A DNA stretch of 64,000 bases from an uncultured Flavobacteriales bacterium (GCA_905478555.1 CAJQIZ010000021.1:13479-77478); one strand, 5' to 3'; positions 15,049 to 57,877 are shown, counted from the first letter of the stretch. Translations and numbers: made by a program. The notes: generated from the sequence alone by a model not told the origin.

Positions 15049-15624
15049 TTAGTATAATAATCCTACACAATCTTCAAAACCATCCATTTTTATCATATCT
15101 TCTTCTGTTAAAACTTCCATATCTTCAACAGTATAGTTTAACATAAGTTGTGTTAACATACAATTACAATAGGCTGTCATTTCTGAATCATCTCCTGAAC
15201 AACTTTCCATAAATTCATTTTTAAATTCTTCAGACCATTCTTGATCATTTTCTTCATTAGCTGATTCATCTTCCATTTCCATTCCTAATTTAATAAGATC
15301 TTCCATATCACCAAAACAACTTAAAATTAGCATTCCTGCCTCCTCCTCAGTCATTGATTCATCTGCATCTGCAATACTATAGGAGTCAAATAATTGGGAG
15401 ACTTTCTCACACGCGCAGGCAGCAAATTCTTCTAACGTAAAACCTGTTAAAGATAATATATTCTCAGATTCAGGGTCATCTTTCATTTCAGATATCATGT
15501 CAGATGTACATCTATCCATATCATTAGAATTCCAATGCCCTTTTTTTGATGACTCTCCTCCACAAGATGCTAGTAAGAAGGTGAAAGATAATAAGTAAAT
15601 GGATGTTTTCATTAAATTTTTCAT
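15049..15624 (-). CDS. Highly acidic Cys-patterned lipoprotein, unknown function
   Basis: It has a lipobox (LLASC|GG) and is very D/E/M-rich. It contains an internal duplication with a conserved C-x-C-x30-C spacing. Confidence 0.6.
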   Translation of the reverse strand: MKNLMKTSIYLLSFTFLLASCGGESSKKGHWNSNDMDRCTSDMISEMKDDPESENILSLTGFTLEEFAACACEKVSQLFDSYSIADADESMTEEEAGMLILSCFGDMEDLIKLGMEMEDESANEENDQEWSEEFKNEFMESCSGDDSEMTAYCNCMLTQLMLNYTVEDMEVLTEEDMIKMDGFEDCVGLLY

Positions 15625-15793
15625 TTTATTAATAGTTTGCTAATTTAGTGTAATTATTCTAAAACAACTTTTTTTCTCTATATTTCCATTATAAAAATAA
15701 AAAGTATAGTTTTTTTTGTAGATTTTTAAATTGGGTGAGTATTGTCTACTAATTTGAAAAATTTATTTAGTATTCTACAAATATACTTATTAA

Positions 15794-18927: not shown

Positions 18928-18960
18928 AATACATTTAAGGTTTTTAGCAAAAATAGTCAT

Positions 18961-29770: not shown

Positions 29771-29832
29771 CAATTGCAAATATACAAAACTAAAATAGAA
29801 AAAACAAACTCACATTCTCTCATCTTATCCGT

Positions 29833-40410: not shown

Positions 40411-40443
40411 TTTGTTAAAATATGTTTTTTTTCGTTACATTTG
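40411..40443 (+). promoter_or_regulatory. Candidate promoter of the adhesin locus, with a T8 tract in the spacer
   Basis: TTTG (40411..40414), a 21-nt spacer containing T8 (40425..40432) and TACATTTG (40436..40443) are present. The site lies about 28 nt upstream of ATG 40471. It is a pattern match only. Confidence 0.3.
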
Positions 40444-40470
40444 TTGCTATCTAAAACGAAACGAAACGAC

Positions 40471-40917
40471 ATGAAAAAAACTTTACTTAATGCAACTTTA
40501 TTTTGCGGGTTTCTCCTATTATCAAATACCCTGTTTTCTCAGAACAATAGTTGGGAAGAATACTTTACAGACAACAATATAAAAATTGAATTTAACTATC
40601 AAGTATGTGACTTCAGTTCCACTGCAAGTCAGGAGTTTTTAGTGTTCCGTTTCACCAACCTAACTAACAATAACATTACTTTAGATTATAGTATTGATCT
40701 ATGGAACAATTCCAAAGAAGTAAATACAGAACTAAACACAGATGAATTCCGTAAGACTGTTAAATTGGAGGCTAACGAAACATTAAGTTCTTCTTGTGAA
40801 AATAATGAAATGAAGAAATTTACAGTATTCTCCTCTTTTGTTCACAATACAACAGGAGAGAAATATGTAACACTTACAAAATTTGAATTAACGAATATAA
40901 CTACAACACATGAATAA
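40471..40917 (+). CDS. Small secreted beta-rich protein of unknown function, overlapping the start of giant adhesin 1
   Basis: With ATG 40471 the signal peptide is MKKTLLNATLFCGFLLLSNTLFSQ. Its stop overlaps the ATG of the next gene (ATGAATAA at 40910..40917). I recognised no family. Confidence 0.55.
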   Translation: MKKTLLNATLFCGFLLLSNTLFSQNNSWEEYFTDNNIKIEFNYQVCDFSSTASQEFLVFRFTNLTNNNITLDYSIDLWNNSKEVNTELNTDEFRKTVKLEANETLSSSCENNEMKKFTVFSSFVHNTTGEKYVTLTKFELTNITTTHE

Positions 40918-43900
40918 ATTCTACTTTAAAAGTTTATCGATACTAACAATATTTCTATTATCATTTACTACGGCGCATTCTCAGTGTGTTGTTTGTATTG
41001 AATCTCCAAGTTTAATAACCTGTGGAGAATCTGCAGACTTAATTGGAGACGGATACATAACATCTGTTTATTCTGATGATTTTAACAGTTGGACTAATGC
41101 TACAACTCCTAACCCAAGTTTATGGGCAATGTTAAGTACAGGAGGAACAACTAACTCCAATTGCACAGGATCTCCAACAACAACTAGTTCTTGCGCAGGA
41201 GCTTCTTCAGGAGGAGATTTCTTATGGTTTCCACAAGGATCAGCATTAGCTAGAGAGATAAGGACCATACAAATTCCAGTACCTTTAGGAGGAACTATTT
41301 TCTTTGAATTTAAAATGGAAGGACAAGGAGGAAGTTGTGATGGTCCTGATCAAACTAATGAAGGAATAATGATTCAATATAAAACAGGAGGGATATGGCA
41401 AGATATGGGAGCTCCTCAAGTTCCATTTAGTTCGAATCCTCCTCCCTACAACAATGAAGCTTACTTTATTCCACCAGGAAACGGAAATCCACTATCTCCT
41501 CAATATAATACTTGGGCTCAATATTCTATTCCAATCCCAGCTGCTGCATGGTCTGCTAACACCCAATTTAGATGGATACAAACTAGCCCAACATCTGCCT
41601 CTTGGGATTTCTGGGGAATAGAAAATGTAAACATTGTACCAACAGGACCCGGAGGAGCAAACTTCCTATGGTCTGCTGGAGGGCAAACAACACAAAACAT
41701 TACGGTAAGTCCAATAACATTAACAAATTACACATTAACATATTCTGACGGAGTATCTACATGTAGTACAACCGTCGCTGTAGATGTTTCTCCCCCAGTA
41801 GTTACACCTGCAATTGTACCGAACCCACTAAACCCTTGCCCCTCTGCTACAGATTTAACTGCTGATGTAAACTTTAATACCTGTAATTACAATGTTTACA
41901 TGTTTGATAATGGTGGGGATGGATGGGTAACTATTCCACAAACCTCCTCTTCAATTGACAGCAGAATTGAGGTGTTTGTAGATGGAATCTCTCAAGGTAC
42001 ATATACTCTTAATAATGGATACGGACCTTCCGTGTATTCCTTCCCAGTAACAAATGGAGGAACAATGTCAGTCAACTTTTTAAGTGGAGGACCAAATCCT
42101 GCAGAATGTGTATATGTCGTAGAGGATCCGAACGGAAACTATGTAAACGCTCAAGGAATAACAACATCCCCTAATATACCTGTATGGCCACCACCATTAC
42201 CAATGCCAAATGGTGCATTTGGTGTAAACCCTTTAAATGTAGCTCCTTTTCCAACAACATGTCCTACTACAAATCCTTATAATTACAGCTGGTCAATAAT
42301 CCCAGGAGGATCTACTGCTGGTATAGGTAATCCAAATTCACAAAACACAACCGTAACTACTGCTGTTACACAAGATTATTTAGTTACAGTTACAGATGCA
42401 AACAACCCAGGATGTGTAGCAGATAGTTTTATAACAGTAACAGGATCAGGAGGTAGTTGGGATTTCTCTACTATTACACCCAACCCTGCTTGCCAAGGAG
42501 ATTGTATTGATTTAAATTTCACTTCTACTGTATCTTCTGGTAATTATAATATTATTATAGAAATGATAGACGCAAACGGATCTTCCTCCTCTATGTTTAC
42601 CATTGATAATAATGGAATAAACATTGCTACTGGAAATCCAATCAACTTATGCCCTACAATTTCACTAGCGATTCCTAATGTTACTTTCAACATCACCTCA
42701 CTTGTGGATGCTGCAGATCCAAATAATTGTGAGATTCCTATCACTAACGCATCACAAGTTGTCAGTTTTAACACCTTACCTAATGCAGGAAATACACCTT
42801 TAACTCCTACAACATTCTGTACAGTAGATGCTATTACTGATCTTTCTACTTTTCTAAGCAACTCTCCAGACGCAAATGGAACCTGGACCTACACTGGGAC
42901 AGGAATACCCCCAGTAAACTTACCATTTGTTGGTTTAAATTATAATTTCGATCCAGCAAATTATCCTGCAGGAGATTACACTTATACAGTAAGTAATTCA
43001 CCTTGCCCTACAGACCTAAGTACGATTACAATTAACTTAGAAACTCCACCAGAAGCAGGTCAGTTACCTCCATTCACTACTAATATGTGTATGGGATCTA
43101 TACTAGATTTAAATTCATTATTCATTGTTAACCCTGTACCTAACACACCTGTTTGGACAGACGTAACTTCAGGAATACCTGGAACTAGTGTTTCATCTAA
43201 TTTTAATCCTATTACATCCGGAACCTATACTTTAAGAAACACAATTGTGGCAACGGCTAACTGCCCATCTGATTTTGTAGAAACAACAGTTATTGTTAAC
43301 GATTTACCTACAGTAACATTTAGCACAATTAATCAGATATGTTTAGGAGAATCATTAGACTTAAACTTTTTCGTTACTGGTTCTGCACCATTTTTTATGA
43401 CAGTTACAGATAACATCAACCCAGCATTTTTTGTTATTTCTGATCAAAATGGAAATGACAACATAACAGGAAACCCCATAACGTTTTCTCCTAATACAAC
43501 AGGGATTACTAATTTAACCATTACAAATATTTCAGATTTGTTTTGTAGTGCTACAGTATCAGGACAAAACTCTGTGGTAAATGTTTTAACTCCTCCCAAC
43601 TCTGGAGTTCTTACTTTACCTCTTTCTGTTTGTTCGGATGACTTAACAATATACGACCTAGCTAATCAGATTTCAGGACAAGATTTAAATGGATACTGGT
43701 TAGATGAAAACAACTTTCAGCAACCTCCAAGTTCATCCTTTAACTTTAACACATCAATGTCAGGTGGAAACTACACTTATGTAGTAGAGTCTGCAGCTTG
43801 TCCTGATGCACAAACAATAGTTCCTGTAACAGTAATTACAGCTCCTAATGTTGGAACTGCAAATCCTCAATCTATCTGTATAAACAATTATGGTCTTGGA

Positions 43901-46306
43901 AATCTATTTGACTTAGATAATTTATTAAACGGAAGTCCGAATCTAGGAACTTGGTACGAAAACGGAATTCCTGTACCATCAAATATTAATCCTAATACTT
44001 ATGGTGTTGGTACTACTACTTTTACTTATCAAGTAAATGGAATATCCCCTTGTTCTAACCAATCTATTAGTGTTGATTTAACTATAAACCCAGAACCAGT
44101 TGTCTCTTCTTTTACCTCTTCTGGTCCATCAACAACCCAAGGATATCAGATTGGGTTAGATGTAACTATGTTAGTAGGTACTGCTCCTTTTACGATTGAT
44201 ATTTTTGATGATGAAGTTCCTTTCAACACTGCATCTATATTTATAGCTGCCGGAATGAGTGGATCAGTAAATATGACTCCGAATGTTATTCCAACAACAA
44301 CATACGCAATAAGTTTAATAACAGACGGAAACGGTTGTACTACAACTTTCGGAAGTACAGTTCCTGTTGGAGTTATTCCTTACCCAATAATTGATCCGTT
44401 TACAACCCTTACTCCAGAAATTTGTGAAGGGGATGTATCTAGCATACAGTTTGATATGACCCAAGGAGTTGTTCCAGTTACAGTAGATTATACTATTAAT
44501 GGAATTCCTTATACTGAAATATTAGTTTCAACAGGAGTTACTTCAGTTATAATACCAAACACAAATTTAAATTTTGGAATAAATACATTTAGTATTGTAA
44601 GTATTATTGATGTTAATAATGAAGCAGCTCCAAATATCCCTAACGATATTCAGATTATTTACAATCCTAATCCATCTGCAACATTTACAACTACAACCCC
44701 TATTATTTGTTTTAAAGAAGATGCAATTTTAGAGTTTGATTTTTTATCAGGAACAGCACCATTTACTGTAAACTATAATGATAATTTAATAATTCAAATC
44801 CCGTCATTAATATTTAACAATTTAGGAACTACTTTTAAAATATTAACTCCTAACCCAACAGTTGGAAACCATTCTTATTCTATTATTAATATAATTGATG
44901 CAGAAGGTTGTACAGCAAACATTGCTGCCACTTCTAATATTTTAGTAAGAGCTTTACCTGATTTAGACCTTACAATTAACGGAGCTAATCCTATTTGTTT
45001 CGGACAAAATTCTGAGCTTTCTTTTCCAGTATTATCTGGATTAGCACCATTTAACTTAAATTTATTAGAAGGAAGTACTAACAATACATTAACTGTAGAT
45101 GCAAGTGGACTAATTGGAGGAAGTACTTACTTAGTTTCTCCACCAAATACTACAACTTACACGTTAACATCAGTAACGGATGCAAACGGATGTATGCAAA
45201 CACTTATCGATAGTAAAACACTAATTGTAAACGAATTACCTATAGTAGATGCAACAGGAACTACAGAAATTTGTAATGAAGAAATTACTCAAATTTATTT
45301 TGATTTCAGTGCAGGTCTTTCACCATGGACATTGTCTTATGATGTTAGTGGAACAATATCTGCTCCATTCCTATTAAGTAATACCTCTGACTCTGTTTCT
45401 GTTAGCCCTTCTACTACTTCAGTATACACTTACACAACAGTAACAGATGCTAATAATTGTGTTAATAATTTTACAGATGCTGTTACTATTACTGTTAATC
45501 AATTACCAGAAGTTATTGTTTCTGGTGGTGGAGAAATATGTGATGATGGATCGACAGTAGAAGTTATCTTTAACACATCTAACGGTACACCTACTTTTAA
45601 CTTTGAATACACAATTGGTATAACAGAAAAAATAGTTTCTAATGTTGGATATCAACACATTATTACAACAAATGAATCTGGTATATATACCGTTACTAAT
45701 ATAGTAGACAGTAAGGGTTGTAATGGTAAAAACATAAACGGAACTGCTAATGTAATTGTAAATCCGGTTCCGGTCGCTGACTTTACTGCTTATCCACAAC
45801 CAGCTGATGTCACAAACCCTGTTATTCATTTTATTGACCAATCTACCAATCACACATTAGGTATTTGGGATTTTGACGACAACAGCAATCTTACCTCTAC
45901 TAATTTTGGAGAACTTACACATAGATTTTCGGATGTAGATAGTGGAACCTATTTTGTGGAACTTTATGTAGAATCTAACAAGGGATGTTTCAGTATACAA
46001 ATACAAGAAATTGTAATTGACAATGCGTTTATTTTCTACATTCCGAATGCCTTTACTCCAAATAAAGATCAAGTAAATGATATTTTTAAACCTTATGTAG
46101 ATGGTGTTTCAGAATATGACTTTTATATTTATAGCAGACAAGGTCAAGAAATTTTCCATACTACTGACATAACTGAAGGATGGGACGGTTATGTAGATGG
46201 GAGTGATGAATATGCGATTTCTGGGAAATATGCCTATGCAATTTACATTATAGATTTACACGGAAAAGAGAGAGTATTTCAAGGAAACTTCTTATTAATA
46301 CGATAA
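40910..46306 (+). CDS. Giant T9SS type B cargo / adhesin 1 (1,798 aa)
   Basis: It has a signal peptide and a Cys-rich N-terminal jelly-roll-like module ending in WDFWGIENVNIV. A long series of ~90-100-aa Ig-like modules follows, then a PKD-like domain (FIDQSTNHTLGIWDFDDNS...GTYFVELYVESNKGC). The type B CTD reads IPNAFTPNKDQVNDIFKP...GWDGY. Confidence 0.8.
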   Translation: MNKFYFKSLSILTIFLLSFTTAHSQCVVCIESPSLITCGESADLIGDGYITSVYSDDFNSWTNATTPNPSLWAMLSTGGTTNSNCTGSPTTTSSCAGASSGGDFLWFPQGSALAREIRTIQIPVPLGGTIFFEFKMEGQGGSCDGPDQTNEGIMIQYKTGGIWQDMGAPQVPFSSNPPPYNNEAYFIPPGNGNPLSPQYNTWAQYSIPIPAAAWSANTQFRWIQTSPTSASWDFWGIENVNIVPTGPGGANFLWSAGGQTTQNITVSPITLTNYTLTYSDGVSTCSTTVAVDVSPPVVTPAIVPNPLNPCPSATDLTADVNFNTCNYNVYMFDNGGDGWVTIPQTSSSIDSRIEVFVDGISQGTYTLNNGYGPSVYSFPVTNGGTMSVNFLSGGPNPAECVYVVEDPNGNYVNAQGITTSPNIPVWPPPLPMPNGAFGVNPLNVAPFPTTCPTTNPYNYSWSIIPGGSTAGIGNPNSQNTTVTTAVTQDYLVTVTDANNPGCVADSFITVTGSGGSWDFSTITPNPACQGDCIDLNFTSTVSSGNYNIIIEMIDANGSSSSMFTIDNNGINIATGNPINLCPTISLAIPNVTFNITSLVDAADPNNCEIPITNASQVVSFNTLPNAGNTPLTPTTFCTVDAITDLSTFLSNSPDANGTWTYTGTGIPPVNLPFVGLNYNFDPANYPAGDYTYTVSNSPCPTDLSTITINLETPPEAGQLPPFTTNMCMGSILDLNSLFIVNPVPNTPVWTDVTSGIPGTSVSSNFNPITSGTYTLRNTIVATANCPSDFVETTVIVNDLPTVTFSTINQICLGESLDLNFFVTGSAPFFMTVTDNINPAFFVISDQNGNDNITGNPITFSPNTTGITNLTITNISDLFCSATVSGQNSVVNVLTPPNSGVLTLPLSVCSDDLTIYDLANQISGQDLNGYWLDENNFQQPPSSSFNFNTSMSGGNYTYVVESAACPDAQTIVPVTVITAPNVGTANPQSICINNYGLGNLFDLDNLLNGSPNLGTWYENGIPVPSNINPNTYGVGTTTFTYQVNGISPCSNQSISVDLTINPEPVVSSFTSSGPSTTQGYQIGLDVTMLVGTAPFTIDIFDDEVPFNTASIFIAAGMSGSVNMTPNVIPTTTYAISLITDGNGCTTTFGSTVPVGVIPYPIIDPFTTLTPEICEGDVSSIQFDMTQGVVPVTVDYTINGIPYTEILVSTGVTSVIIPNTNLNFGINTFSIVSIIDVNNEAAPNIPNDIQIIYNPNPSATFTTTTPIICFKEDAILEFDFLSGTAPFTVNYNDNLIIQIPSLIFNNLGTTFKILTPNPTVGNHSYSIINIIDAEGCTANIAATSNILVRALPDLDLTINGANPICFGQNSELSFPVLSGLAPFNLNLLEGSTNNTLTVDASGLIGGSTYLVSPPNTTTYTLTSVTDANGCMQTLIDSKTLIVNELPIVDATGTTEICNEEITQIYFDFSAGLSPWTLSYDVSGTISAPFLLSNTSDSVSVSPSTTSVYTYTTVTDANNCVNNFTDAVTITVNQLPEVIVSGGGEICDDGSTVEVIFNTSNGTPTFNFEYTIGITEKIVSNVGYQHIITTNESGIYTVTNIVDSKGCNGKNINGTANVIVNPVPVADFTAYPQPADVTNPVIHFIDQSTNHTLGIWDFDDNSNLTSTNFGELTHRFSDVDSGTYFVELYVESNKGCFSIQIQEIVIDNAFIFYIPNAFTPNKDQVNDIFKPYVDGVSEYDFYIYSRQGQEIFHTTDITEGWDGYVDGSDEYAISGKYAYAIYIIDLHGKERVFQGNFLLIR

Positions 46307-46345: not shown

Positions 46346-49300
46346 ATGATTAAAAGAGTATTTAGTATATTATTTTTGTTATACTGTACAAACACTGTTT
46401 ATGCTCAATCCTCTACTTGTAATACTGCATTACCATTTTGTACTGGTAGCACCTATACATTTCCGGCATCTACAAATACTGCAGCTCCAACTGGAGCATA
46501 TTTTGATTGTTTATTTTCTCAACCAAATCCTGCTTTCTATTATTGTGAAATAGATAACCCAGGCAACATGACAATTAATATTCAAGGAGGTTCAGCGGGT
46601 AATACAAACGATATTGATTTTATATGTTGGGGACCATTTACTAATCCCACTATTATGTGTAATCAACTAACTGCTGCCAACGTGGAAGATTGTAGTTATT
46701 CAGGAACATGGAACGAATTTTGCGATATCAATGGTGCTTCAACAGGAGATTATTATGTAATCTTGATTACTAATTATTCAAATCAAAACTGTAATATTAC
46801 TTTTTCACAAACGAGTGGTACTGCAACAACAAACTGCTGTATTTTAGGTGGAGATGCTGGAGATGATAACACATTAAACATTTGTGACTCTGATCCTGTT
46901 TTTAATATGGAAACTCATTTATTAGGGACCCCAGACAATGGTGGAATCTGGTATGACGCAAGTTGGAATGCTGTATCAAATCAGTTTAATCCTTCTGTAA
47001 ACACAACTAGTACCTACGCATATATTGTACAAGGTTCTTCTGCCGCATGCCCAGATGACACTTCATATTTATCAGTAAACATTACCACTAGTCCTATTGT
47101 AAGTATACCAATTTATGCTAGTATGTGTGATAATGCAGGAATATTAACACTAAACACTGCAACTCCAATAGGTGGAACTTACTTAGTAAACGGTAATATT
47201 TCCACAACATTTACTCCATCAGTACTAAATGTAGGTAGTAACATAATAGATTATACTTATACAGATGGAAATGGATGTTCTGCAACAACATCACAAAACT
47301 TAATTGTTGACCCATCCCCTTTTGCAACCGCAACAACAACTAACGCAAGTTGTAATGGATTTACAGACGGAACAGCTATTTTAAATATCACAACAGGACA
47401 AACTCCATTCATTGAAGATTGGGGAATAGCAAATCCTACTGCTCTTTCTGCAGGAAGCTATACATATACGGTGACAGATGCAAATAATTGTAGTTTTACA
47501 GATAGTATTATAATATACGAACCTATTAACTTCAACATTAATGTTGTAACAACTGATGTTAGTTGTAATGGATTAAATAATGGAACAGCAGTAGTGAAAA
47601 TTCAAGGGAATAACACTCCAACAGGTACCGTTTCAACTCAAAGTTATTGCAGTTCTACACCAGGTTCTAGTTCCTACTCTAATATCGAATTAGTTCAATT
47701 ATTTGGTGATAATTTTAATATTGATAATAATACTGCGGGAATCTGTGATCAGTATGAAGATTATACAACAGCTATGTATGCAGATATTACAGAAGGACAG
47801 AATTACAACTTAACAATAAATTTAGGAGATTGTAGTAATTTGAACTATTCTGCAGGTGCTAAAGTTTATATAGATTGGAATATTGATGGAGATTTTAATG
47901 ATCCAGGTGAGGAAGTAGGAACGATTCCTTATGGAGTATCTTCCGTAGCAACAATTCCTATTAATGTACCTCTTTCTGGAGCATCAGGAGCTACTAGAAT
48001 GAGAGTAGTTGCACAATATTTAAGTACTAGTGATAATAGTCTAGTAGGCCCTTGTGATGTTGGGTTATGGTCTCCTTCATATACGGAACCATGGTTTGGA
48101 GCTACAGAAGATTATTCTATCGTAGTTACTGCTGCAACTATTTCAGCATCATATATTTGGTCTTCTGGACAGACTACCGACAGTGTTTTCGGATTAGCTG
48201 CTGGGCCATATTCTGTTGATGTAATAGATGCGAATGGATGTATCAACTCCGGTTTTTTTAACATTACTGAACCTAACCCAATGACTGTTTTAACTAGTCA
48301 GAACAATATAAGTTGTGATGGAGGATCAGATGGGTCTATCACTCTAAATATATTTGGAGGTATTACAAATTACACTATTACAGCTGCAGGATTATCTCAA
48401 ACTCTTTCTGGAGGAATTTCAACTTTTACAACACTAAATGTCTTATCAGCAGCTAACTATCCTTACACTATTAGTGATTCAAACGGATGTGTTTATACAG
48501 ATAATATTACTCTGACTTCTCCCTCTCCTATCTCAGTAACAGAAACAATAAATAATGTAAATTGTTATGCAGGAAATGATGGAAATGTTATTTTATCAAT
48601 TTCAGGAGGTATCCCAACTTACACTGAAAATTGGGGATTAAATAATTCCTCATCTCTTTCTGTTGGAACTTATAACTATACTGTTACAGACAATAATGGA
48701 TGTAACTTTACAAATTCTGTATCTATTACAGAACCTACTGAAATACAAATTAGCTCTACACAAAACAATGTAAGTACTTGTGGAGCTACAGATGGAAATA
48801 TTGACATTACTACTAGCGGAGGAACTTCACCCTACATATTCAGCTGGAATAGTGGGCAAACTACAGAAGATATTGCTTCTCTTTCAGCTGGAACTTATAC
48901 TCTAACTATTACAGATGCTAATTTATGCAACAATACAATTAGCATTACTTTAACAGAACCCACTTCACCCATTGTTAGTTTTACTCAAATAAATACAAAC
49001 TGTAATGCAGCTACTAACGGAAGTATTGATATTACTGTTTCATCAGGATTAAGTCCATATCAATTCGCATGGTCTAATCTAGAAACAACAGAGGATATTT
49101 TTAATTTAAATGCAGGAAATTATTCTGTAAATATTACTGATGCTAATAATTGTGTAATAATAGAAAACATTACTATTACAGAACCAACAGCAATAAATGT
49201 TATTTCTACACAAACTAATGTAACTAATTGTAATGGAAATGATGGAAGTGTAGACATATCTGCAAGTGGAGGCACTGGAAACTACACTTATCTTTGGTCC

Positions 49301-51724
49301 AATGGAGAAATAACAGAGGATGTCTTTAATCTTATTTCAGGTATTCATTTTGTAGATGTAACTGATGCAAATGGTTGCACTTACAACTTTAGTTTTACAA
49401 TAAACGAACCTTCTGGAATCACCTCTTCCGAAACGATAACTAATGTAAATTGTTATGGAGAAAATTCAGGATCAGTTATCTTAAATGTTTCTGGAGGACA
49501 ATCACCATATATTGAAAATTGGAATGGATACAACTCCTTAAATTTAAGTGTTGGTACTTATACTTATATTGTAACAGATAACCAAAATTGTAATTACACA
49601 AACAGCATTACCATTACAGAACCACAAGAATTATTAGTAACTGAGAATATTACTAATGTATTCTGCAAGGATGAAAACACAGGAAATGTGACTCTAAATA
49701 TTAGTGGTGGAACATCCCCATTTAATGAAAATTGGGGAGCATTTAATCCTTCATCTCTTATAGACGGAAGTTATTCCTATACTGTTACAGATGTAAATGG
49801 ATGTACTTTTAATAATAATATAATTATAACTGAACCCGATTCACTACTATCTAATATCACTACAACGGATGCGATTTGTTTCGGATATAATAACGGGACT
49901 GCTTTGATATCTTCTTCTGGAGGAACAAATCCTTATACAATAGATTGGTTTGGACAAAACAATTTATCTCTTACTGCAAACAATTACAGTGTTTTAGTTG
50001 TAGATTTAAATGGATGTACAAACGCAATCAATTTTACAATTTCAGAACCAACTGAAATTTCTATTACTACAAATACTACATTTACATCCTGTTTCGGATA
50101 CAATGACGGAACGGCAATTCTTACTATTTCAGGAGGATTCCCTCCATTCACAGAAAATTGGTTCGGACAAAACCCTTTAAATTTAGCAGCTGGAAATCAT
50201 CCTTTTTCTGTAACAGATTCCAATAATTGCGTACAACAAGATATAGCTGTAATTTCAGAACCAACAGTAATCACTACAAATGAAATTACATCTGATGTAT
50301 TATGTAGTGGAGAAAATAATGGAACTGCATTCTTGCAAATTACTGGAGGAACTTCTCCTTATTCAGAAAACTGGAATTCAGCAGATATCACACAACTTCC
50401 TAAAGGGAATTATACTTACACGGTTACAGATGCAAATGGATGTACTTTTAACGAATATGTAATTATAAACGAACCAACTCCAATTAGCGTTTCCGAAATG
50501 GTTTCTGATGCGAATTGTTTTAATAGTGGAGACGGACAAGCTATACTTACAATTAATGGAGGAACATCTCCATATATTGAAGATTGGGGAACTGAAAATC
50601 CTTTTTCACTTTCTGCAGGAATTTACAACTATATCATTACCGATTTGAATTCTTGTACTTATTCTGACAGTGTTTTAATCAACCAATCTAATCAAGTTTT
50701 TATGAATTTCAGTTTAGAATCTCCTATTTGTATTAACGATACTTCCGCCCTTACAGTTAATGTTGAAGATCCACTTTCATCACAATATACTGTAGAAATA
50801 AATGACGGAACAATTAGCAGTTATTTACTCATTGATTCTTTAGGAAATGATGTTGTCACGGGAGAAAAATTTACATTTACTCCTGTTACTTCAACTACTT
50901 TTACGATTATTTCTATTACAGATGAAAATGGATGTAATAGTCCCGTAAATCAACCTTTTGATGTAGTGATAAATCCTTTACCAATATTAAATTTAGATAT
51001 CCCAAACTACTGTACACAAGATAGTAGCAGAATATTAAATCAAGGTACACCCCAAGGAGGAAATTATTTTATTAATGGAATACCTAATAGTTATTTTGAT
51101 ATTGAAAAACTAGAAGTAGAAACATACACTATTCAATATAGTTATACCGAACCTATAACTACTTGTTTTAATTCAATTACAACATCAGTTAAAATAAATT
51201 CTAGTCCATATGCTGATTTTGCTTTCGGCCCTCAACCAGTAAACATTGATAAGCCGGAAGTGTTTTTTGAAAATAAATCTGATTATTACAACTACCAAAT
51301 TTGGACTATAGAGGATGGAACTACAATAATAAATCAAGACAAATTTTCTCATATATTCTCAGATACAGGTACTTTTAACACGCAATTATATATTGAAAAT
51401 CAATATGGATGTTCGGACTCTGTAAATTATAATGTAGTAATAAATCCAGTTTTCACAATTCATATACCTACCGCTTTCACTCCAAATAATGATGGAGATA
51501 ACGACACATTCGGACCGGTACTAAGAGCCGGTGGGTATACTAATTTTAGTATAAAAATCTTTAATCAGTGGGGAGAAAAAATATTTGATGAAGAAAATCT
51601 ATTCTGGAACGGGAAAGTAAATGAGGAGTTAGCACAAAACGGAGCATATACCTACACTATTATCGCATTCGATTTCCTAGATAAACCATACATCTTTACA
51701 GGAAATTTCCTATTAATACAATAA
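46346..51724 (+). CDS. Giant SprB-repeat adhesin 2 (1,792 aa): Cys-rich head, GEVED domain, 13 SprB repeats, type B CTD
   Basis: It has a signal peptide. The head reads QSSTCNTALPFCTGSTYTF...YYVILITNYSNQNC. SprB repeats match C.G..[DN]G...L...GG..PY...W......L.AG.Y.[YV].V.D.NGC. The GEVED-type domain runs YC...IDWNIDGDF.DPGEEV...TRMRV...GATEDYSIVV. The type B CTD reads IPTAFTPNNDGDNDTF...FWNGK. Confidence 0.85.
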   Translation: MIKRVFSILFLLYCTNTVYAQSSTCNTALPFCTGSTYTFPASTNTAAPTGAYFDCLFSQPNPAFYYCEIDNPGNMTINIQGGSAGNTNDIDFICWGPFTNPTIMCNQLTAANVEDCSYSGTWNEFCDINGASTGDYYVILITNYSNQNCNITFSQTSGTATTNCCILGGDAGDDNTLNICDSDPVFNMETHLLGTPDNGGIWYDASWNAVSNQFNPSVNTTSTYAYIVQGSSAACPDDTSYLSVNITTSPIVSIPIYASMCDNAGILTLNTATPIGGTYLVNGNISTTFTPSVLNVGSNIIDYTYTDGNGCSATTSQNLIVDPSPFATATTTNASCNGFTDGTAILNITTGQTPFIEDWGIANPTALSAGSYTYTVTDANNCSFTDSIIIYEPINFNINVVTTDVSCNGLNNGTAVVKIQGNNTPTGTVSTQSYCSSTPGSSSYSNIELVQLFGDNFNIDNNTAGICDQYEDYTTAMYADITEGQNYNLTINLGDCSNLNYSAGAKVYIDWNIDGDFNDPGEEVGTIPYGVSSVATIPINVPLSGASGATRMRVVAQYLSTSDNSLVGPCDVGLWSPSYTEPWFGATEDYSIVVTAATISASYIWSSGQTTDSVFGLAAGPYSVDVIDANGCINSGFFNITEPNPMTVLTSQNNISCDGGSDGSITLNIFGGITNYTITAAGLSQTLSGGISTFTTLNVLSAANYPYTISDSNGCVYTDNITLTSPSPISVTETINNVNCYAGNDGNVILSISGGIPTYTENWGLNNSSSLSVGTYNYTVTDNNGCNFTNSVSITEPTEIQISSTQNNVSTCGATDGNIDITTSGGTSPYIFSWNSGQTTEDIASLSAGTYTLTITDANLCNNTISITLTEPTSPIVSFTQINTNCNAATNGSIDITVSSGLSPYQFAWSNLETTEDIFNLNAGNYSVNITDANNCVIIENITITEPTAINVISTQTNVTNCNGNDGSVDISASGGTGNYTYLWSNGEITEDVFNLISGIHFVDVTDANGCTYNFSFTINEPSGITSSETITNVNCYGENSGSVILNVSGGQSPYIENWNGYNSLNLSVGTYTYIVTDNQNCNYTNSITITEPQELLVTENITNVFCKDENTGNVTLNISGGTSPFNENWGAFNPSSLIDGSYSYTVTDVNGCTFNNNIIITEPDSLLSNITTTDAICFGYNNGTALISSSGGTNPYTIDWFGQNNLSLTANNYSVLVVDLNGCTNAINFTISEPTEISITTNTTFTSCFGYNDGTAILTISGGFPPFTENWFGQNPLNLAAGNHPFSVTDSNNCVQQDIAVISEPTVITTNEITSDVLCSGENNGTAFLQITGGTSPYSENWNSADITQLPKGNYTYTVTDANGCTFNEYVIINEPTPISVSEMVSDANCFNSGDGQAILTINGGTSPYIEDWGTENPFSLSAGIYNYIITDLNSCTYSDSVLINQSNQVFMNFSLESPICINDTSALTVNVEDPLSSQYTVEINDGTISSYLLIDSLGNDVVTGEKFTFTPVTSTTFTIISITDENGCNSPVNQPFDVVINPLPILNLDIPNYCTQDSSRILNQGTPQGGNYFINGIPNSYFDIEKLEVETYTIQYSYTEPITTCFNSITTSVKINSSPYADFAFGPQPVNIDKPEVFFENKSDYYNYQIWTIEDGTTIINQDKFSHIFSDTGTFNTQLYIENQYGCSDSVNYNVVINPVFTIHIPTAFTPNNDGDNDTFGPVLRAGGYTNFSIKIFNQWGEKIFDEENLFWNGKVNEELAQNGAYTYTIIAFDFLDKPYIFTGNFLLIQ

Positions 51725-51741
51725 ATGAAGAAAATAATATT
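48305..51741 (+). repeat. Copy A of a 3,437-bp perfect direct repeat
   Basis: It is identical to 53957..57393 (offset 5,652). The two ORFs translate identically over their last 1,139 aa. The off-frame track ORFs 50280..50462 and 55932..56114 are also identical. DNA lines spot-checked at several positions matched. Confidence 0.9.
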
Positions 51742-54700
51742 TATAATACTTCATTTACCAATATTCATGTGGGGACAAAGTACAGTGACTATTTGCAATG
51801 GAGATAGTGTGTTGTTATATAGTAATTGGGAAACACAAAATGGTATTTATACAGATGGATTGACGACTACAACATTGATAGTTAACCCTACCCCAACAGT
51901 AACGGGTAGTTTCATTTTAAATGGTAATGCTGTGCAGACAATACCCAATACTTTTAGATTAACTCAAGCGATTAATTCTCAATCAGGTTCTGCCTGGAAT
52001 AGTGTTACATTAAATTTAACACAACCATTTAATTTTAATGTTGATATGTTTTTTGGTTATAATAATGGTGGGGCGGATGGAATAGCTTTTGTATTACAAC
52101 CTATCAGTACATCAATAGGAACTGGTGGTGGTGGAATGGGATATCAAGGTGTAAGTCCATCATTTGCGGTTGAATTTGACACCTGGCAAAACGCTTCTGA
52201 CCCATCATATGATCATATTGCAATACAAAAAAATGGAGATCTTAATCATAATGGAGGGAATAATTTAGCAGGACCTCTAGGATTTCCTACTGGAAATATC
52301 AATATAGAAGATGGTCAATGGCATAATGTTATTTTTTCCTGGGATCCATCATCATTTAATTTTAAGGTTATTTTTGATGGAGCGTTACTGGTTAATTATA
52401 CTAATAATATTATGGCTAATATCTTTAGTAATAACCCAAACGTCTATTGGGGATTTACCGCTGCAACAGGAGGAGCTAATAATGTTCAGCAATTTCGAGT
52501 AAACGCACTTGGAGTACAATTATCTGATGTAACAATTTGCAGTTATGACTCTGTACAGGTTAACCCACAGATTAACACCTCTGCATATACATATCTTTGG
52601 TCACCCAATTATAACATATCTAATAACACAATTTCTTCTCCTTATTTTTCTCCAGATACCACTACAACATATACATTAGCAATCACAAACTCTTATGGAT
52701 GTACATATATTGATTCGTTGACAATTAATGTAGATACTTCTGCTTCTAGCATTATATTTCCATTTGTATCACAATTCTGTCTTGGAGATCTACCAATAAA
52801 TCTTAATTCTGCAACACCTATAGGCGGGAATTATTTAGTTAATAATATTGCTTCAACTATTTTTAATCCTAATATAAATGATATTGGAATCAATACAATA
52901 ACATATTCCTATACAAGTTCCAATGGATGCTCTAATTCTCTTACAAATAATATAAATGTTTATGATTCGCCAAATGTTTTGTGCGTACCCACTAATGTTT
53001 CTTGTAATGGCCTTACAGATGGTAGCGCAACACTTACAATTTCTGGGGGGACAGCTAGCTACACTACTAATTGGGGAGGCAATAACCCTACGGCATTAAG
53101 TGCGGGAAATTATGGTTACACTGTAACTGATATTAATGGTTGTGCTTTTTCAGATAGTATAATTATTTATGAGCCTGGCATCTTTACAGCTTCTGTTAAC
53201 ACAACAAATGTAAGTTGTAATGGAGCTAATAATGGTACTGCAAGTGTACAATTAATAGGATCTTCTAATCCTCCTGGAACTGTATCAACACTTAATTATT
53301 GCACATCTGAACCTGGATCAAATACTTATTCAAATATTGAATTAGTTCAATTATTTGGTGATAATTTTAATATTGATAATAATACTGCGGGAATCTGTGA
53401 TCAGTATGAAGATTATACAACATCTATGTATGCAGATATTACAGAAGGGCAAAATTACAACTTAACAATAAATTTAGGAGATTGTAGTAATATGAATTAC
53501 TCAGCTGGAGGTAAGATATTTATAGACTGGAATATTGATGGAGACTTTAGTGATCCAGGTGAAGAGGTTGCTACAATACCTTATGGAATAAATTCAACTA
53601 TATCTATACCTATCACCGTTCCATATAGCGGAGTATCCGGCCCAACAAGAATGAGAGTGGTTTCTCAATATATTAGTACTCAAGATGTTTCTTTAATAGG
53701 ATCATGTGATGCAGGAGTTTGGGCTCCTTTATATACTGAACCATGGTTTGGAGCTACAGAAGATTATTCAATTGTAATATCAGCTGCTAGTATTACAGCA
53801 TCATATATATGGTCAAATGGACTAATATCAGATAGTATTAGTGGATTATCTGCTGGAATTTACATAATAGATATTACTAATGGAAATGGATGTATAATTA
53901 CAGATTCCATTATCATTACTCAACCATCTGCTATATCTACAGTTACATCACAAAATAATATAAGTTGTGATGGAGGATCAGATGGGTCTATCACTCTAAA
54001 TATATTTGGAGGTATTACAAATTACACTATTACAGCTGCAGGATTATCTCAAACTCTTTCTGGAGGAATTTCAACTTTTACAACACTAAATGTCTTATCA
54101 GCAGCTAACTATCCTTACACTATTAGTGATTCAAACGGATGTGTTTATACAGATAATATTACTCTGACTTCTCCCTCTCCTATCTCAGTAACAGAAACAA
54201 TAAATAATGTAAATTGTTATGCAGGAAATGATGGAAATGTTATTTTATCAATTTCAGGAGGTATCCCAACTTACACTGAAAATTGGGGATTAAATAATTC
54301 CTCATCTCTTTCTGTTGGAACTTATAACTATACTGTTACAGACAATAATGGATGTAACTTTACAAATTCTGTATCTATTACAGAACCTACTGAAATACAA
54401 ATTAGCTCTACACAAAACAATGTAAGTACTTGTGGAGCTACAGATGGAAATATTGACATTACTACTAGCGGAGGAACTTCACCCTACATATTCAGCTGGA
54501 ATAGTGGGCAAACTACAGAAGATATTGCTTCTCTTTCAGCTGGAACTTATACTCTAACTATTACAGATGCTAATTTATGCAACAATACAATTAGCATTAC
54601 TTTAACAGAACCCACTTCACCCATTGTTAGTTTTACTCAAATAAATACAAACTGTAATGCAGCTACTAACGGAAGTATTGATATTACTGTTTCATCAGGA

Positions 54701-57376
54701 TTAAGTCCATATCAATTCGCATGGTCTAATCTAGAAACAACAGAGGATATTTTTAATTTAAATGCAGGAAATTATTCTGTAAATATTACTGATGCTAATA
54801 ATTGTGTAATAATAGAAAACATTACTATTACAGAACCAACAGCAATAAATGTTATTTCTACACAAACTAATGTAACTAATTGTAATGGAAATGATGGAAG
54901 TGTAGACATATCTGCAAGTGGAGGCACTGGAAACTACACTTATCTTTGGTCCAATGGAGAAATAACAGAGGATGTCTTTAATCTTATTTCAGGTATTCAT
55001 TTTGTAGATGTAACTGATGCAAATGGTTGCACTTACAACTTTAGTTTTACAATAAACGAACCTTCTGGAATCACCTCTTCCGAAACGATAACTAATGTAA
55101 ATTGTTATGGAGAAAATTCAGGATCAGTTATCTTAAATGTTTCTGGAGGACAATCACCATATATTGAAAATTGGAATGGATACAACTCCTTAAATTTAAG
55201 TGTTGGTACTTATACTTATATTGTAACAGATAACCAAAATTGTAATTACACAAACAGCATTACCATTACAGAACCACAAGAATTATTAGTAACTGAGAAT
55301 ATTACTAATGTATTCTGCAAGGATGAAAACACAGGAAATGTGACTCTAAATATTAGTGGTGGAACATCCCCATTTAATGAAAATTGGGGAGCATTTAATC
55401 CTTCATCTCTTATAGACGGAAGTTATTCCTATACTGTTACAGATGTAAATGGATGTACTTTTAATAATAATATAATTATAACTGAACCCGATTCACTACT
55501 ATCTAATATCACTACAACGGATGCGATTTGTTTCGGATATAATAACGGGACTGCTTTGATATCTTCTTCTGGAGGAACAAATCCTTATACAATAGATTGG
55601 TTTGGACAAAACAATTTATCTCTTACTGCAAACAATTACAGTGTTTTAGTTGTAGATTTAAATGGATGTACAAACGCAATCAATTTTACAATTTCAGAAC
55701 CAACTGAAATTTCTATTACTACAAATACTACATTTACATCCTGTTTCGGATACAATGACGGAACGGCAATTCTTACTATTTCAGGAGGATTCCCTCCATT
55801 CACAGAAAATTGGTTCGGACAAAACCCTTTAAATTTAGCAGCTGGAAATCATCCTTTTTCTGTAACAGATTCCAATAATTGCGTACAACAAGATATAGCT
55901 GTAATTTCAGAACCAACAGTAATCACTACAAATGAAATTACATCTGATGTATTATGTAGTGGAGAAAATAATGGAACTGCATTCTTGCAAATTACTGGAG
56001 GAACTTCTCCTTATTCAGAAAACTGGAATTCAGCAGATATCACACAACTTCCTAAAGGGAATTATACTTACACGGTTACAGATGCAAATGGATGTACTTT
56101 TAACGAATATGTAATTATAAACGAACCAACTCCAATTAGCGTTTCCGAAATGGTTTCTGATGCGAATTGTTTTAATAGTGGAGACGGACAAGCTATACTT
56201 ACAATTAATGGAGGAACATCTCCATATATTGAAGATTGGGGAACTGAAAATCCTTTTTCACTTTCTGCAGGAATTTACAACTATATCATTACCGATTTGA
56301 ATTCTTGTACTTATTCTGACAGTGTTTTAATCAACCAATCTAATCAAGTTTTTATGAATTTCAGTTTAGAATCTCCTATTTGTATTAACGATACTTCCGC
56401 CCTTACAGTTAATGTTGAAGATCCACTTTCATCACAATATACTGTAGAAATAAATGACGGAACAATTAGCAGTTATTTACTCATTGATTCTTTAGGAAAT
56501 GATGTTGTCACGGGAGAAAAATTTACATTTACTCCTGTTACTTCAACTACTTTTACGATTATTTCTATTACAGATGAAAATGGATGTAATAGTCCCGTAA
56601 ATCAACCTTTTGATGTAGTGATAAATCCTTTACCAATATTAAATTTAGATATCCCAAACTACTGTACACAAGATAGTAGCAGAATATTAAATCAAGGTAC
56701 ACCCCAAGGAGGAAATTATTTTATTAATGGAATACCTAATAGTTATTTTGATATTGAAAAACTAGAAGTAGAAACATACACTATTCAATATAGTTATACC
56801 GAACCTATAACTACTTGTTTTAATTCAATTACAACATCAGTTAAAATAAATTCTAGTCCATATGCTGATTTTGCTTTCGGCCCTCAACCAGTAAACATTG
56901 ATAAGCCGGAAGTGTTTTTTGAAAATAAATCTGATTATTACAACTACCAAATTTGGACTATAGAGGATGGAACTACAATAATAAATCAAGACAAATTTTC
57001 TCATATATTCTCAGATACAGGTACTTTTAACACGCAATTATATATTGAAAATCAATATGGATGTTCGGACTCTGTAAATTATAATGTAGTAATAAATCCA
57101 GTTTTCACAATTCATATACCTACCGCTTTCACTCCAAATAATGATGGAGATAACGACACATTCGGACCGGTACTAAGAGCCGGTGGGTATACTAATTTTA
57201 GTATAAAAATCTTTAATCAGTGGGGAGAAAAAATATTTGATGAAGAAAATCTATTCTGGAACGGGAAAGTAAATGAGGAGTTAGCACAAAACGGAGCATA
57301 TACCTACACTATTATCGCATTCGATTTCCTAGATAAACCATACATCTTTACAGGAAATTTCCTATTAATACAATAA
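51725..57376 (+). CDS. Giant SprB-repeat adhesin 3 (1,883 aa): L-type lectin head, GEVED domain, SprB repeats, type B CTD
   Basis: It has a signal peptide. A legume/L-type lectin-like domain lies at about 51905..52510 (FILNGNA...RLTQA...QSGSAW...GADGIAFVLQP...GGGMGYQG...FAVEFDTWQN..DPSYDHIAI...WGFTAATGG). The C-terminal 1,139 aa are identical to adhesin 2. Confidence 0.85.
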   Translation: MKKIIFIILHLPIFMWGQSTVTICNGDSVLLYSNWETQNGIYTDGLTTTTLIVNPTPTVTGSFILNGNAVQTIPNTFRLTQAINSQSGSAWNSVTLNLTQPFNFNVDMFFGYNNGGADGIAFVLQPISTSIGTGGGGMGYQGVSPSFAVEFDTWQNASDPSYDHIAIQKNGDLNHNGGNNLAGPLGFPTGNINIEDGQWHNVIFSWDPSSFNFKVIFDGALLVNYTNNIMANIFSNNPNVYWGFTAATGGANNVQQFRVNALGVQLSDVTICSYDSVQVNPQINTSAYTYLWSPNYNISNNTISSPYFSPDTTTTYTLAITNSYGCTYIDSLTINVDTSASSIIFPFVSQFCLGDLPINLNSATPIGGNYLVNNIASTIFNPNINDIGINTITYSYTSSNGCSNSLTNNINVYDSPNVLCVPTNVSCNGLTDGSATLTISGGTASYTTNWGGNNPTALSAGNYGYTVTDINGCAFSDSIIIYEPGIFTASVNTTNVSCNGANNGTASVQLIGSSNPPGTVSTLNYCTSEPGSNTYSNIELVQLFGDNFNIDNNTAGICDQYEDYTTSMYADITEGQNYNLTINLGDCSNMNYSAGGKIFIDWNIDGDFSDPGEEVATIPYGINSTISIPITVPYSGVSGPTRMRVVSQYISTQDVSLIGSCDAGVWAPLYTEPWFGATEDYSIVISAASITASYIWSNGLISDSISGLSAGIYIIDITNGNGCIITDSIIITQPSAISTVTSQNNISCDGGSDGSITLNIFGGITNYTITAAGLSQTLSGGISTFTTLNVLSAANYPYTISDSNGCVYTDNITLTSPSPISVTETINNVNCYAGNDGNVILSISGGIPTYTENWGLNNSSSLSVGTYNYTVTDNNGCNFTNSVSITEPTEIQISSTQNNVSTCGATDGNIDITTSGGTSPYIFSWNSGQTTEDIASLSAGTYTLTITDANLCNNTISITLTEPTSPIVSFTQINTNCNAATNGSIDITVSSGLSPYQFAWSNLETTEDIFNLNAGNYSVNITDANNCVIIENITITEPTAINVISTQTNVTNCNGNDGSVDISASGGTGNYTYLWSNGEITEDVFNLISGIHFVDVTDANGCTYNFSFTINEPSGITSSETITNVNCYGENSGSVILNVSGGQSPYIENWNGYNSLNLSVGTYTYIVTDNQNCNYTNSITITEPQELLVTENITNVFCKDENTGNVTLNISGGTSPFNENWGAFNPSSLIDGSYSYTVTDVNGCTFNNNIIITEPDSLLSNITTTDAICFGYNNGTALISSSGGTNPYTIDWFGQNNLSLTANNYSVLVVDLNGCTNAINFTISEPTEISITTNTTFTSCFGYNDGTAILTISGGFPPFTENWFGQNPLNLAAGNHPFSVTDSNNCVQQDIAVISEPTVITTNEITSDVLCSGENNGTAFLQITGGTSPYSENWNSADITQLPKGNYTYTVTDANGCTFNEYVIINEPTPISVSEMVSDANCFNSGDGQAILTINGGTSPYIEDWGTENPFSLSAGIYNYIITDLNSCTYSDSVLINQSNQVFMNFSLESPICINDTSALTVNVEDPLSSQYTVEINDGTISSYLLIDSLGNDVVTGEKFTFTPVTSTTFTIISITDENGCNSPVNQPFDVVINPLPILNLDIPNYCTQDSSRILNQGTPQGGNYFINGIPNSYFDIEKLEVETYTIQYSYTEPITTCFNSITTSVKINSSPYADFAFGPQPVNIDKPEVFFENKSDYYNYQIWTIEDGTTIINQDKFSHIFSDTGTFNTQLYIENQYGCSDSVNYNVVINPVFTIHIPTAFTPNNDGDNDTFGPVLRAGGYTNFSIKIFNQWGEKIFDEENLFWNGKVNEELAQNGAYTYTIIAFDFLDKPYIFTGNFLLIQ

Positions 57377-57393
57377 ATGAAGAAAATAATATT
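53957..57393 (+). repeat. Copy B of a 3,437-bp perfect direct repeat
   Basis: See copy A. The first mismatch upstream is C48304 versus T53956. The first mismatch downstream is T51742 versus A57394. Confidence 0.9.
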
Positions 57394-57877
57394 ACTTTCA
57401 GATACTCATCATACTTTAGATGAACGCATTTTCCCACACCTTGAGACATGTGATGAAATATGGCATGCAGGAGACATAGGAAAATTAGAAGTAACAGATC
57501 AACTTAAAAAATTTGCACCACTAAGGGCAGTTTGGGGTAACATTGATGACCATTCTGCAAGAAAAGAATTCCGTGAAACTACTTATTTTAAATGTGAACA
57601 AGTAAAAGTAATGATGACGCATATTGGTGGTTATCCTGGAAGGTATTCAAAAGGAATTAAAGATATACTTATCAGTAAACAACCTGATTTATTTATTTCT
57701 GGACATTCTCATATACTTAAGGTAATGCACGATAAAAAACTAAATATATTACATATGAATCCTGGAGCAATTGGAAATTACGGATGGCATAAGGTAAAAA
57801 CAATACTTGCTTTTGATGTAGAAGGAAAAGACATCAAAAACTTAAGAGTAATAGAATTTACTAGAAAAGAAAACTAA
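57377..57877 (+). CDS. Metallophosphoesterase, YfcE/MJ0936 family
   Basis: Motifs are LLSDTHH, WHAGDIG, GNIDD and GHSH, and the protein is 166 aa. Confidence 0.8.
   Translation: MKKIILLSDTHHTLDERIFPHLETCDEIWHAGDIGKLEVTDQLKKFAPLRAVWGNIDDHSARKEFRETTYFKCEQVKVMMTHIGGYPGRYSKGIKDILISKQPDLFISGHSHILKVMHDKKLNILHMNPGAIGNYGWHKVKTILAFDVEGKDIKNLRVIEFTRKEN

Follow-up and report, generated by a model that had tools for sequence, protein, structure and literature searches.

Unrelated heads on a (near-)identical stalk, probably homogenized by gene conversion, in tandem adhesin-like genes from an uncultured marine Flavobacteriales bacterium

The DNA analyzed here (the window) is a stretch of 64,000 nucleotides (nt) from a metagenome-assembled genome (MAG) of an uncultured marine Flavobacteriales bacterium. 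Positions are counted from its first letter. Three large open reading frames (ORFs) lie head to tail on the plus strand: gene 1 (40910-46306), gene 2 (46346-51724), and gene 3 (51725-57376). Genes 2 and 3, the subject of this work, code for adhesin-like proteins of 1792 and 1883 amino acids (aa), and gene 3 starts with its ATG immediately behind the gene 2 stop codon (TAAATG). The two proteins have a common layout of putative signal peptide, head, Ig-like linker, two SprB repeats, a GEVED domain, about nine SprB repeats (nine in gene 2), a PKD domain, and a C-terminal domain (CTD) of type B, the sorting signal of a type IX secretion system (T9SS). Gene 2 has a Cys-rich head (head A) and gene 3 an L-type, or legume, lectin head (head B).

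All parts of the two genes lie on the plus strand. In gene 2, head A (46409-46843, aa 22-166) is followed by linker A (46856-47335, aa 171-330), which has weak Pfam matches to Big_9 and Cadherin_5, and by neck A (47336-48304, aa 331-653), which holds the first two SprB repeats and GEVED (aa 506-592). Repeat copy 1 (48305-51741) comes next and comprises the stalk of SprB modules and PKD, the type-B CTD (51458-51718, aa 1705-1791), the stop codon, and 17 nt beyond it. The counterparts in gene 3 are head B (51899-52504, aa 59-260), linker B (52511-52987), neck B (52988-53956), and repeat copy 2 (53957-57393). The latter has the same contents and reaches into the start of the next gene, which encodes a YfcE-family phosphodiesterase (Metallophos).

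The 3' part of the two genes is the same sequence. Positions 48305-51724 equal 53957-57376 over 3,420 nt to the stop codons, plus the 17 nt beyond, and the starting points of 48305 and 53957 named in a preliminary description of this DNA are exact. A block of this length is well beyond chance. Within the stalk, one SprB module is only 66-74% identical to another, and the identity is therefore in register between the genes and not a generic likeness of repeats. Synonymous divergence (dS, by the method of Nei and Gojobori) was calculated between gene 2 and gene 3 by segment. It is 1.84 in the linker, 2.27 in the first two SprB repeats (the 5' neck), 0.08 in a 153-nt island within the neck, 1.39 in the GEVED part (the 3' neck), and 0 over the remaining 1,139 codons of stalk and CTD. 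Linker and neck are 45-66% identical in nucleotides; the linkers share about 31-35% of their amino acids, with dS saturated. The island (47687-47839 in neck A, 53339-53491 in neck B) is 98% identical with a longest exact run of 84 nt, and the stretch between it and the exact block is 63-76% identical in nucleotides. To judge from these values, the island looks like a separate short conversion tract, slightly older than the exact block. The sliding identity and dS describe a mosaic of steps, not the smooth gradient from no through partial to complete identity that had been reported at first. Collinearity, earlier placed from about 47.1 and 52.7 kb, begins sooner, right behind the heads at about 46856 and 52511.

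Because synonymous differences are erased in the island and stalk and saturated elsewhere, the profile points to transfer of sequence between the copies rather than to constraint on the proteins. Purifying selection alone could keep paralogues alike, and the neck island does fall on the protein columns that the family conserves best. However, selection would have to account for a dS of 0 over 3.4 kb, yet between strains this stalk differs by 1-30% in nucleotides, and its protein is just 59-72% identical to the closest other lineages. The dS data reject purifying selection as the cause of the identity, and we find it scarcely credible.

The lectin domain of gene 3 had been placed at about 51905..52510 in the preliminary description. 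Pfam agrees, matching Lectin_L-type_dom (PF18483) at 51899-52504 with E=1.6e-44 and 152.8 bits against a cutoff of 78.3, over profile positions 6-214 of 215. A phmmer search of the PDB gave a Methanocaldococcus jannaschii protein (7elv) as the closest solved relative of head B (E=8e-33, 35% identity). In the phmmer alignments, ADG and VEFDTWQN..D...DH of head B line up with plant lectins, including the motifs of winged-bean agglutinin. Among 40 aligned homologues G116, A117, D118, G119, G132, G135, and G139 are invariant, and E150, D152, N156, D159, and H164 are kept in at least 90%. From established legume-lectin knowledge, we take the E/D/N/D/H set to hold the metal and the Ala-Asp-Gly with the Gly loop to hold the sugar. 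The AlphaFold2 (AF2) model of head B has a mean predicted local distance difference test score (pLDDT) of 81, exceeding 90 over most of aa 61-260. With Foldseek, this model matches 7elv (E=1.4e-19, TM-score on the target (TMt) 0.83), SraP (4m00/4m01), and YwfG (7yl4-6). There are 410 PDB matches at E<=1e-3, mainly legume lectins, which have the concanavalin A (ConA)-like β-sandwich fold. By its profile match and its modeled fold, head B is a genuine L-type lectin of the Ca/Mn type, and it should bind carbohydrate in a metal-dependent manner.

The Cys-rich module that had been noticed at the N terminus of gene 2 was located to aa 22-166. It has no significant Pfam match, the PPC family (PF04151) giving only E=0.97 and 10.8 bits against a cutoff of 25.9. 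About 11 cysteines are present in head A, and its own invariant motif is DxDFxCWGPF...TN. The invariant residues among 44 homologues are D89, D91, F92, W95, G96, P97, F98, C105, C116, Y137, T142, and N143. Its AF2 model (pLDDT 81) matches 3jqw, 2o8o, 1nqd, and 5sv5 in a Foldseek search of the PDB (TMt 0.70-0.77, E 2e-4 to 1e-3). On this model, head A is a disulfide-rich β-sandwich like that of PPC and the clostridial collagenase collagen-binding domains (CBDs). We treat head A as a separate, widespread family for which Pfam has no model. A profile search found 2,912 representatives of 50%-identity clusters at E<=1e-3, an upper estimate as the profile partly spans the Ig-like linker. The domain is mostly N-terminal in these T9SS-type proteins, which vary greatly in length, and some add type-A CTDs, Ig, or PKD domains. 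Aligning the head A and head B alignments with hhalign gave a probability of 10.7%, with only the Ig-like linker behind the heads aligned. The two heads are unrelated, as had been proposed from the sequence.

To survey relatives, one genome per species was scanned with a neck profile, and the ORFs found were then classified. Related contigs or genomes are labeled L and related proteins P, each with a number. The profile matched only MAGs from uncultured marine Flavobacteriales and related Bacteroidota. A Cys-head gene followed in tandem by a lectin-head gene was found in L011, L012, L013, L020, L024, L025, and L071, representing at least six species-level genomes. Orthologous heads across these pairs are 57-90% (head A) and 62-84% (head B) identical. 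Exact 3' tracts join the two genes in L012 (4,029 nt, from aa 285), L020 (2,279 nt, from aa 736), and L025 (2,272 nt, from aa 672), and the pair in L024 is partly exact. All of these tracts end at the stop codon. With the window and the strain described below, the 5' boundaries fall at aa 285, 380, 654, 672, and 736, and the 3' boundary stays at the stop codon. In L011, L013, and L071 the pairs are not homogenized, being 50-69% identical throughout. Because such diverged pairs exist, the pair is older than its homogenization. At the syntenic locus of L002 and L014 the Cys-head gene stands alone. Lone lectin-head genes occur at unrelated loci in L006/L016 and in L007/L026 (the latter on a 2.1-Mb chromosome).

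L008 is a strain with the same three-gene array and flanking genes 96-98% identical to those of the window. Its exact tract is 4,232 nt long and starts at aa 380, against aa 654 in the window. Between the two strains the stalk differs by 1-30%, depending on the segment. Aligned over its length, window 46346-57376 against L008 4589-15616 is a mosaic of segments that are about 70% and 99% identical, with 69-79% at, for example, 47540-48134 and 48734-49334. This pattern implies that diverged stalk and neck segments may frequently be imported or shuffled. The 3' tract is 100% identical within each of the window, L008, L012, L020, and L025, against 70-99% in nucleotides between strains and 36-72% in amino acids between species. 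Neck, stalk, and tail group by lineage and not by type of head; for example, in each segment the Cys-head protein P0235 is nearest to the lectin-head protein P0187 (79-85%). Head and stalk are decoupled in L083, where the lectin head is 91-97% identical in nucleotides to that of the window and the stalk only 63-77%. The upstream neighbor in L083 ends in the same 38 aa as the lectin gene itself. We also looked for the direction of the last conversion by comparing the shared stalk of the window with relatives; the lectin-head proteins P0183 and P0184 are 72% and 67% identical to it and the Cys-head protein P0186 is 70% identical, which favors neither direction.

The 3' edge of the repeat lies just within the downstream gene. 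The first 17 nt of the phosphodiesterase gene (ATGAAGAAAATAATATT) are also the first 17 nt of gene 3 (51725-51741 and 57377-57393). L008 has the 17-nt copies at 9959-9975 and 15617-15633, with a strain-specific single nucleotide polymorphism in both. In L083 (119-152) a remnant of about 33 nt of the phosphodiesterase 5' end follows the upstream stop codon, then a spacer, and then TTTTATGTAACTTTGT. The lectin gene in L012, L020, and L025 is preceded by a 24-35-nt spacer with the same element, and there the identity stops at the stop codon. The element is conserved 5-10 nt before the lectin-gene ATG in these three and in L083, and is missing from the window with its directly joined genes 2 and 3. 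It resembles the -7 promoter element of Bacteroidetes, whose consensus is TAnnTTTG. The 17-nt copy looks like a scar left by duplication or conversion. We infer from these sequences that the 17-nt copy marks the 3' edge of a duplicated unit that included the start of the downstream gene. In the lineage of the window, a microhomology deletion may then have fused the remnant to the lectin gene, with loss of the gene's own promoter region. As the spacer and promoter region would have been lost in this way, gene 3 is probably co-transcribed with gene 2. A scan of 40.2-58.6 kb for sigma-70 promoters (82 found, 99 expected) and terminators (6 found, 6.9 expected) gave chance levels, and a search for the Bacteroidetes-type TAnnTTTG-N20-ATG gave no match in the region of genes 1-3. 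An operon structure is therefore proposed from the abutting TAAATG junction.

A second account of the pair is a recent tandem duplication, after which one copy gained a foreign head and neck. It would draw on the 17 nt of the Metallophos gene within the duplicated unit (about 33 nt in L083), which resemble the scar of a duplication, and on the genomes with a single gene: in L002 and L014 the Cys-head gene is alone here, and the lone lectin-head genes lie elsewhere. Against a recent origin, the same tandem order is kept in the species-level genomes listed above, and three of their pairs are fully diverged. The tract lengths among strains and genomes, 3,420, 4,232, and possibly about 4,040 nt, indicate repeated events. 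The dS of 0.08 in the island, compared with 0 in the stalk, likewise indicates at least two events of different age within the window alone. We consider a recent duplication very unlikely. An old duplication may have founded the pair, but it would leave the present identity unexplained.

Genes 2 and 3 appear to code for exported proteins. The hydrophobic N termini end in ...VYAQ and ...MWGQ, respectively. Like gene 1, both genes end in a type-B sorting domain above the cutoffs of TIGR04131 and PF13585. TIGR04131 scores 39.2 bits in gene 2 and 39.1 bits in gene 3 against a cutoff of 35, and PF13585 gives E of about 1e-12 (9e-13 in gene 2), covering the last 87 or so residues. Export would probably proceed by Sec and then by the T9SS. 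SprB repeats (PF13573) were found with E=2e-59 in gene 2 and E=5e-63 in gene 3, as 11 and 12 stretches.

The explanation we favor, and hold to be likely, is that genes 2 and 3 form a tandem pair of ancient origin in which the stalk and type-B T9SS signal have been homogenized by recurrent in-register gene conversion, with the heads left diverged. RecA-type recombination between the tandem paralogues would copy the 3' two-thirds, comprising the stalk, the CTD, the stop codon, and the first bases downstream. Tracts would be anchored at the 3' end and would stop at a variable 5' point within the neck. The heads and linkers would lie outside the tracts and retain their old divergence. After Sec export, the type-B CTD would be recognized by the T9SS and the proteins handed over to a shuttle of the PorP/SprF type. 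They may then be displayed as rods of SprB, GEVED, and PKD domains with the head at the distal tip. The pair would thus present two ligand specificities, one of them a glycan, on the same stalk.

Several observations weigh against this explanation, the first of which concerns export. No PorP/SprF-like gene was found downstream of the pair or among the scanned ORFs of the window. A type-B cargo gene usually has its cognate PorP/SprF gene directly downstream, and orphan cargos that use a distant shuttle are documented (PMC12618676). The pairing of type-B CTDs with shuttles is specific, and a single shuttle can serve more than one orphan cargo (PMC12618676). Since their CTDs are identical, the two proteins could use the same distant, non-adjacent shuttle. 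The other observations concern the assemblies. All sequences come from de Bruijn assemblies of metagenomes or single cells: metaSPAdes NODE contigs at 6-8x, MEGAHIT contigs, and a hybrid assembly for L025. A near-identical tandem repeat may be written twice from one collapsed edge in such assemblies, which leaves the exactness of the identity unproven. Over 22 kb, the window and the independent assembly L084 differ at only two positions, 51553 and 57205, which are the same position of the stalk. The difference is the same A>G change in both copies, as a collapsed edge or a hidden paralogue-specific variant would give.

An artefact of this kind, in which similar stalks were collapsed and one consensus written twice, would make both the plateau of identity and its boundary products of the assembler. 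We regard it as possible but doubtful. It fits the low coverage of the SPAdes and MEGAHIT contigs, the single variant at the same position of both copies, and the many cluster members that break inside these genes. The LRMED MAG (L025) is open to it too, being a hybrid de Bruijn assembly. As long-read proof of the identity L025 was rejected, as it is a hybrid metaSPAdes assembly with circular consensus sequencing (CCS) reads. However, a collapse requires copies that are already nearly identical. By our estimate of assembler behavior it tolerates a few per cent of divergence at most, whereas the stalks of strains at 96-98% average nucleotide identity differ by up to 30%. Near-identity and the signal of concerted evolution can for this reason be considered safe, on the sequences compared. 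Likeness within a genome stays far above that between genomes, and the case for concerted evolution would stand even with collapsed copies. The junction between stalk end and lectin start is present in the window, L001, L008, and L084, four assemblies in all. It has just 17 nt in common with the alternative junction, less than the k-mer of any assembly, and reads must therefore support the tandem junction. The possibility that heads A and B are allelic alternatives strung together by the assembler was ruled out on the same two grounds, the 17-nt overlap and the recurrence. Genes 2 and 3 fall in one protein cluster at 90% identity though their heads are unrelated, and several members of the cluster are fragments broken inside the repeat.

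The identical stalks could be more than a passive outcome of tandem homology and serve as a substrate for recombination with which the population switches its adhesin repertoire. Unequal crossing-over would delete, restore, or hybridize the lectin-head gene. The stalk and CTD would be kept identical by selection, with both heads needing one orphan PorP/SprF-type shuttle and surface track. We think this unlikely; if true, T9SS adhesins of abundant marine Flavobacteriales would have a system for switching heads by recombination. A candidate product of such unequal crossing-over is L009 10001-15379 (ENA ERZ1283867 k141_851666, assembled with MEGAHIT), which has one hybrid gene and no lectin gene. 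The hybrid opens with head A followed by neck A; exactly at the island its sequence becomes that of neck B, and it then goes on along the stalk and straight into the phosphodiesterase gene. It may be either a deletion variant from unequal crossing-over or a MEGAHIT shortcut. The final k of 141 exceeds the 84 nt over which the island matches exactly at its longest, and this slightly favors a real variant.

Returning to gene conversion within an old pair, the preliminary description had seen a cassette logic in which different heads were grafted onto one stalk. The pair is old across species, and it is the stalks that would get overwritten, not the heads that were grafted. What remains of the cassette logic is that the same SprB/GEVED scaffold occurs with many N-terminal modules and that stalk and signal are homogenized; recent grafting and the gradient do not. 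Other heads were found on the scaffold. Besides the Cys-rich and L-lectin heads, related MAGs have fn3, plastocyanin-like cupredoxin, and fn3 plus C-type lectin modules. These scaffolds are from L040, L045, L047, L051, L057, and L052/L061, and a 938-aa protein with L-lectin, GEVED, and Ig_7 but no SprB stalk and tail was also observed. The combination of lectin, GEVED, SprB, and CHU_C has dozens of full-length homologues in metagenomes, found with a full-length query. Proteins of about 540 aa with lectin and CHU_C are very common (659 matches). Short head queries return proteins only up to about 1.7 times the length of the query, and full architectures are recovered only with a full-length query.

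Gene 1 (40910-46306, plus strand), directly upstream of the pair in all close relatives, codes for a T9SS type-B cargo protein of 1798 aa. It has a Reelin-subrepeat-B-like head (Pfam PF21471, E=6e-13), Ig-like repeats, and no SprB repeats, and ends in a CHU_C domain (E=6e-11; TIGR04131 38.8 bits against a cutoff of 35). It is the syntenic upstream neighbor in L002, L008, L009, and L084. A small conserved ORF without a family (40441-40917) overlaps its start. A Bat (aerotolerance-type) operon lies upstream of the three-gene array. Downstream of gene 3 are the YfcE-family phosphodiesterase gene (57377-57877, plus strand; TIGR00040, E=1e-19), DUF4293, and rho. NCBI and ENA records, on contigs of up to 80.7 kb, contain exact copies of the three big proteins, and so do metaSPAdes contigs of two further ENA samples and Tara/JGI members of the same clusters. 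The window also has more T9SS cargo, at 16243-18960, 24941-27700, and 27704-29779, all on the minus strand. These are an M43 metallopeptidase, which has four SprB repeats and the signal of a type-A CTD, and two further CHU_C (type-B) proteins. This region is rich in secreted surface proteins.

Marine Flavobacteriales, both free-living and particle-associated, are major degraders of algal glycans, and their attachment proteins are almost wholly uncharacterized. The locus offers a testable pair in which the same stalk and secretion signal go with a Ca/Mn-type lectin in one protein and a disulfide-rich PPC-like domain in the other, conserved in several uncultured lineages. It is also a case in which T9SS type-B cargo genes evolve in concert, and the boundaries of the tracts vary even between strains. 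For such genes this has consequences for short-read MAG assembly, which breaks or collapses them, for protein clustering, and for orthology calls. Head A is a member of a large N-terminal family (>2,900 clusters at 50% identity) that lacks a Pfam model.

Genes 2 and 3 had been called SprB-like gliding adhesins. SprB of Flavobacterium johnsoniae, a gliding-motility adhesin and T9SS type-B cargo, does have the same SprB repeats (PF13573) and type-B CTD (TIGR04131/CHU_C), and like it the two proteins are predicted filamentous surface proteins of Bacteroidota. In size and neighbors genes 2 and 3 are unlike it. They code for about 1,800 aa, against about 6,500 aa for SprB, with discrete N-terminal heads and GEVED, and have no adjacent sprC/sprD/sprF-like neighbors. 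With size, neighbors, and heads all different, they are not SprB orthologues, the kinship being at the level of domains only. RemA of F. johnsoniae, a mobile adhesin, is likewise secreted to the surface by the T9SS and has a lectin module, of another fold class (the SUEL/rhamnose-binding type) and not L-type. It has a type-A CTD and uses the PorV shuttle (PMC12618676).

SraP (Staphylococcus aureus), YwfG (Lactococcus lactis), and Aap/SasG/Pls of Gram-positive bacteria likewise have a module of legume-lectin fold distally on a repetitive rod, and lectin heads on repetitive stalks belong to the concept of periscope proteins (PMC9999234). Those proteins differ from gene 3 in phylum, in using accessory Sec (aSec) or sortase as opposed to a T9SS type-B CTD, and in their stalk modules, and are 20-22% identical to it. 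The preliminary description knew of no characterized L-type lectin heads on SprB-like gliding adhesins. This holds for experimental work, but the architecture is abundant in databases and its Gram-positive parallels are well known. The closest solved relatives of head B (7elv/7exo) are of an archaeal protein in another context. Head A is of the same fold class as the ColG/ColH CBD and PPC (PF04151), with no significant match in sequence.

A precedent within the phylum is provided by rgpA, kgp, and hagA of Porphyromonas gingivalis. They have identical C-terminal adhesin repeats within and between genes through recombination, have different N-terminal domains, and break short-read assemblies (PMC5266723). 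Like genes 2 and 3, they encode T9SS cargo of Bacteroidota. They differ in being dispersed and not in tandem, and in having protease N-terminal domains, cleaved-adhesin repeats, and a type-A CTD. Both modular adhesins and tandem paralogues that evolve in concert are known, and the pair described here is a well-documented further example of them, from a group that is uncharacterized and ecologically important.

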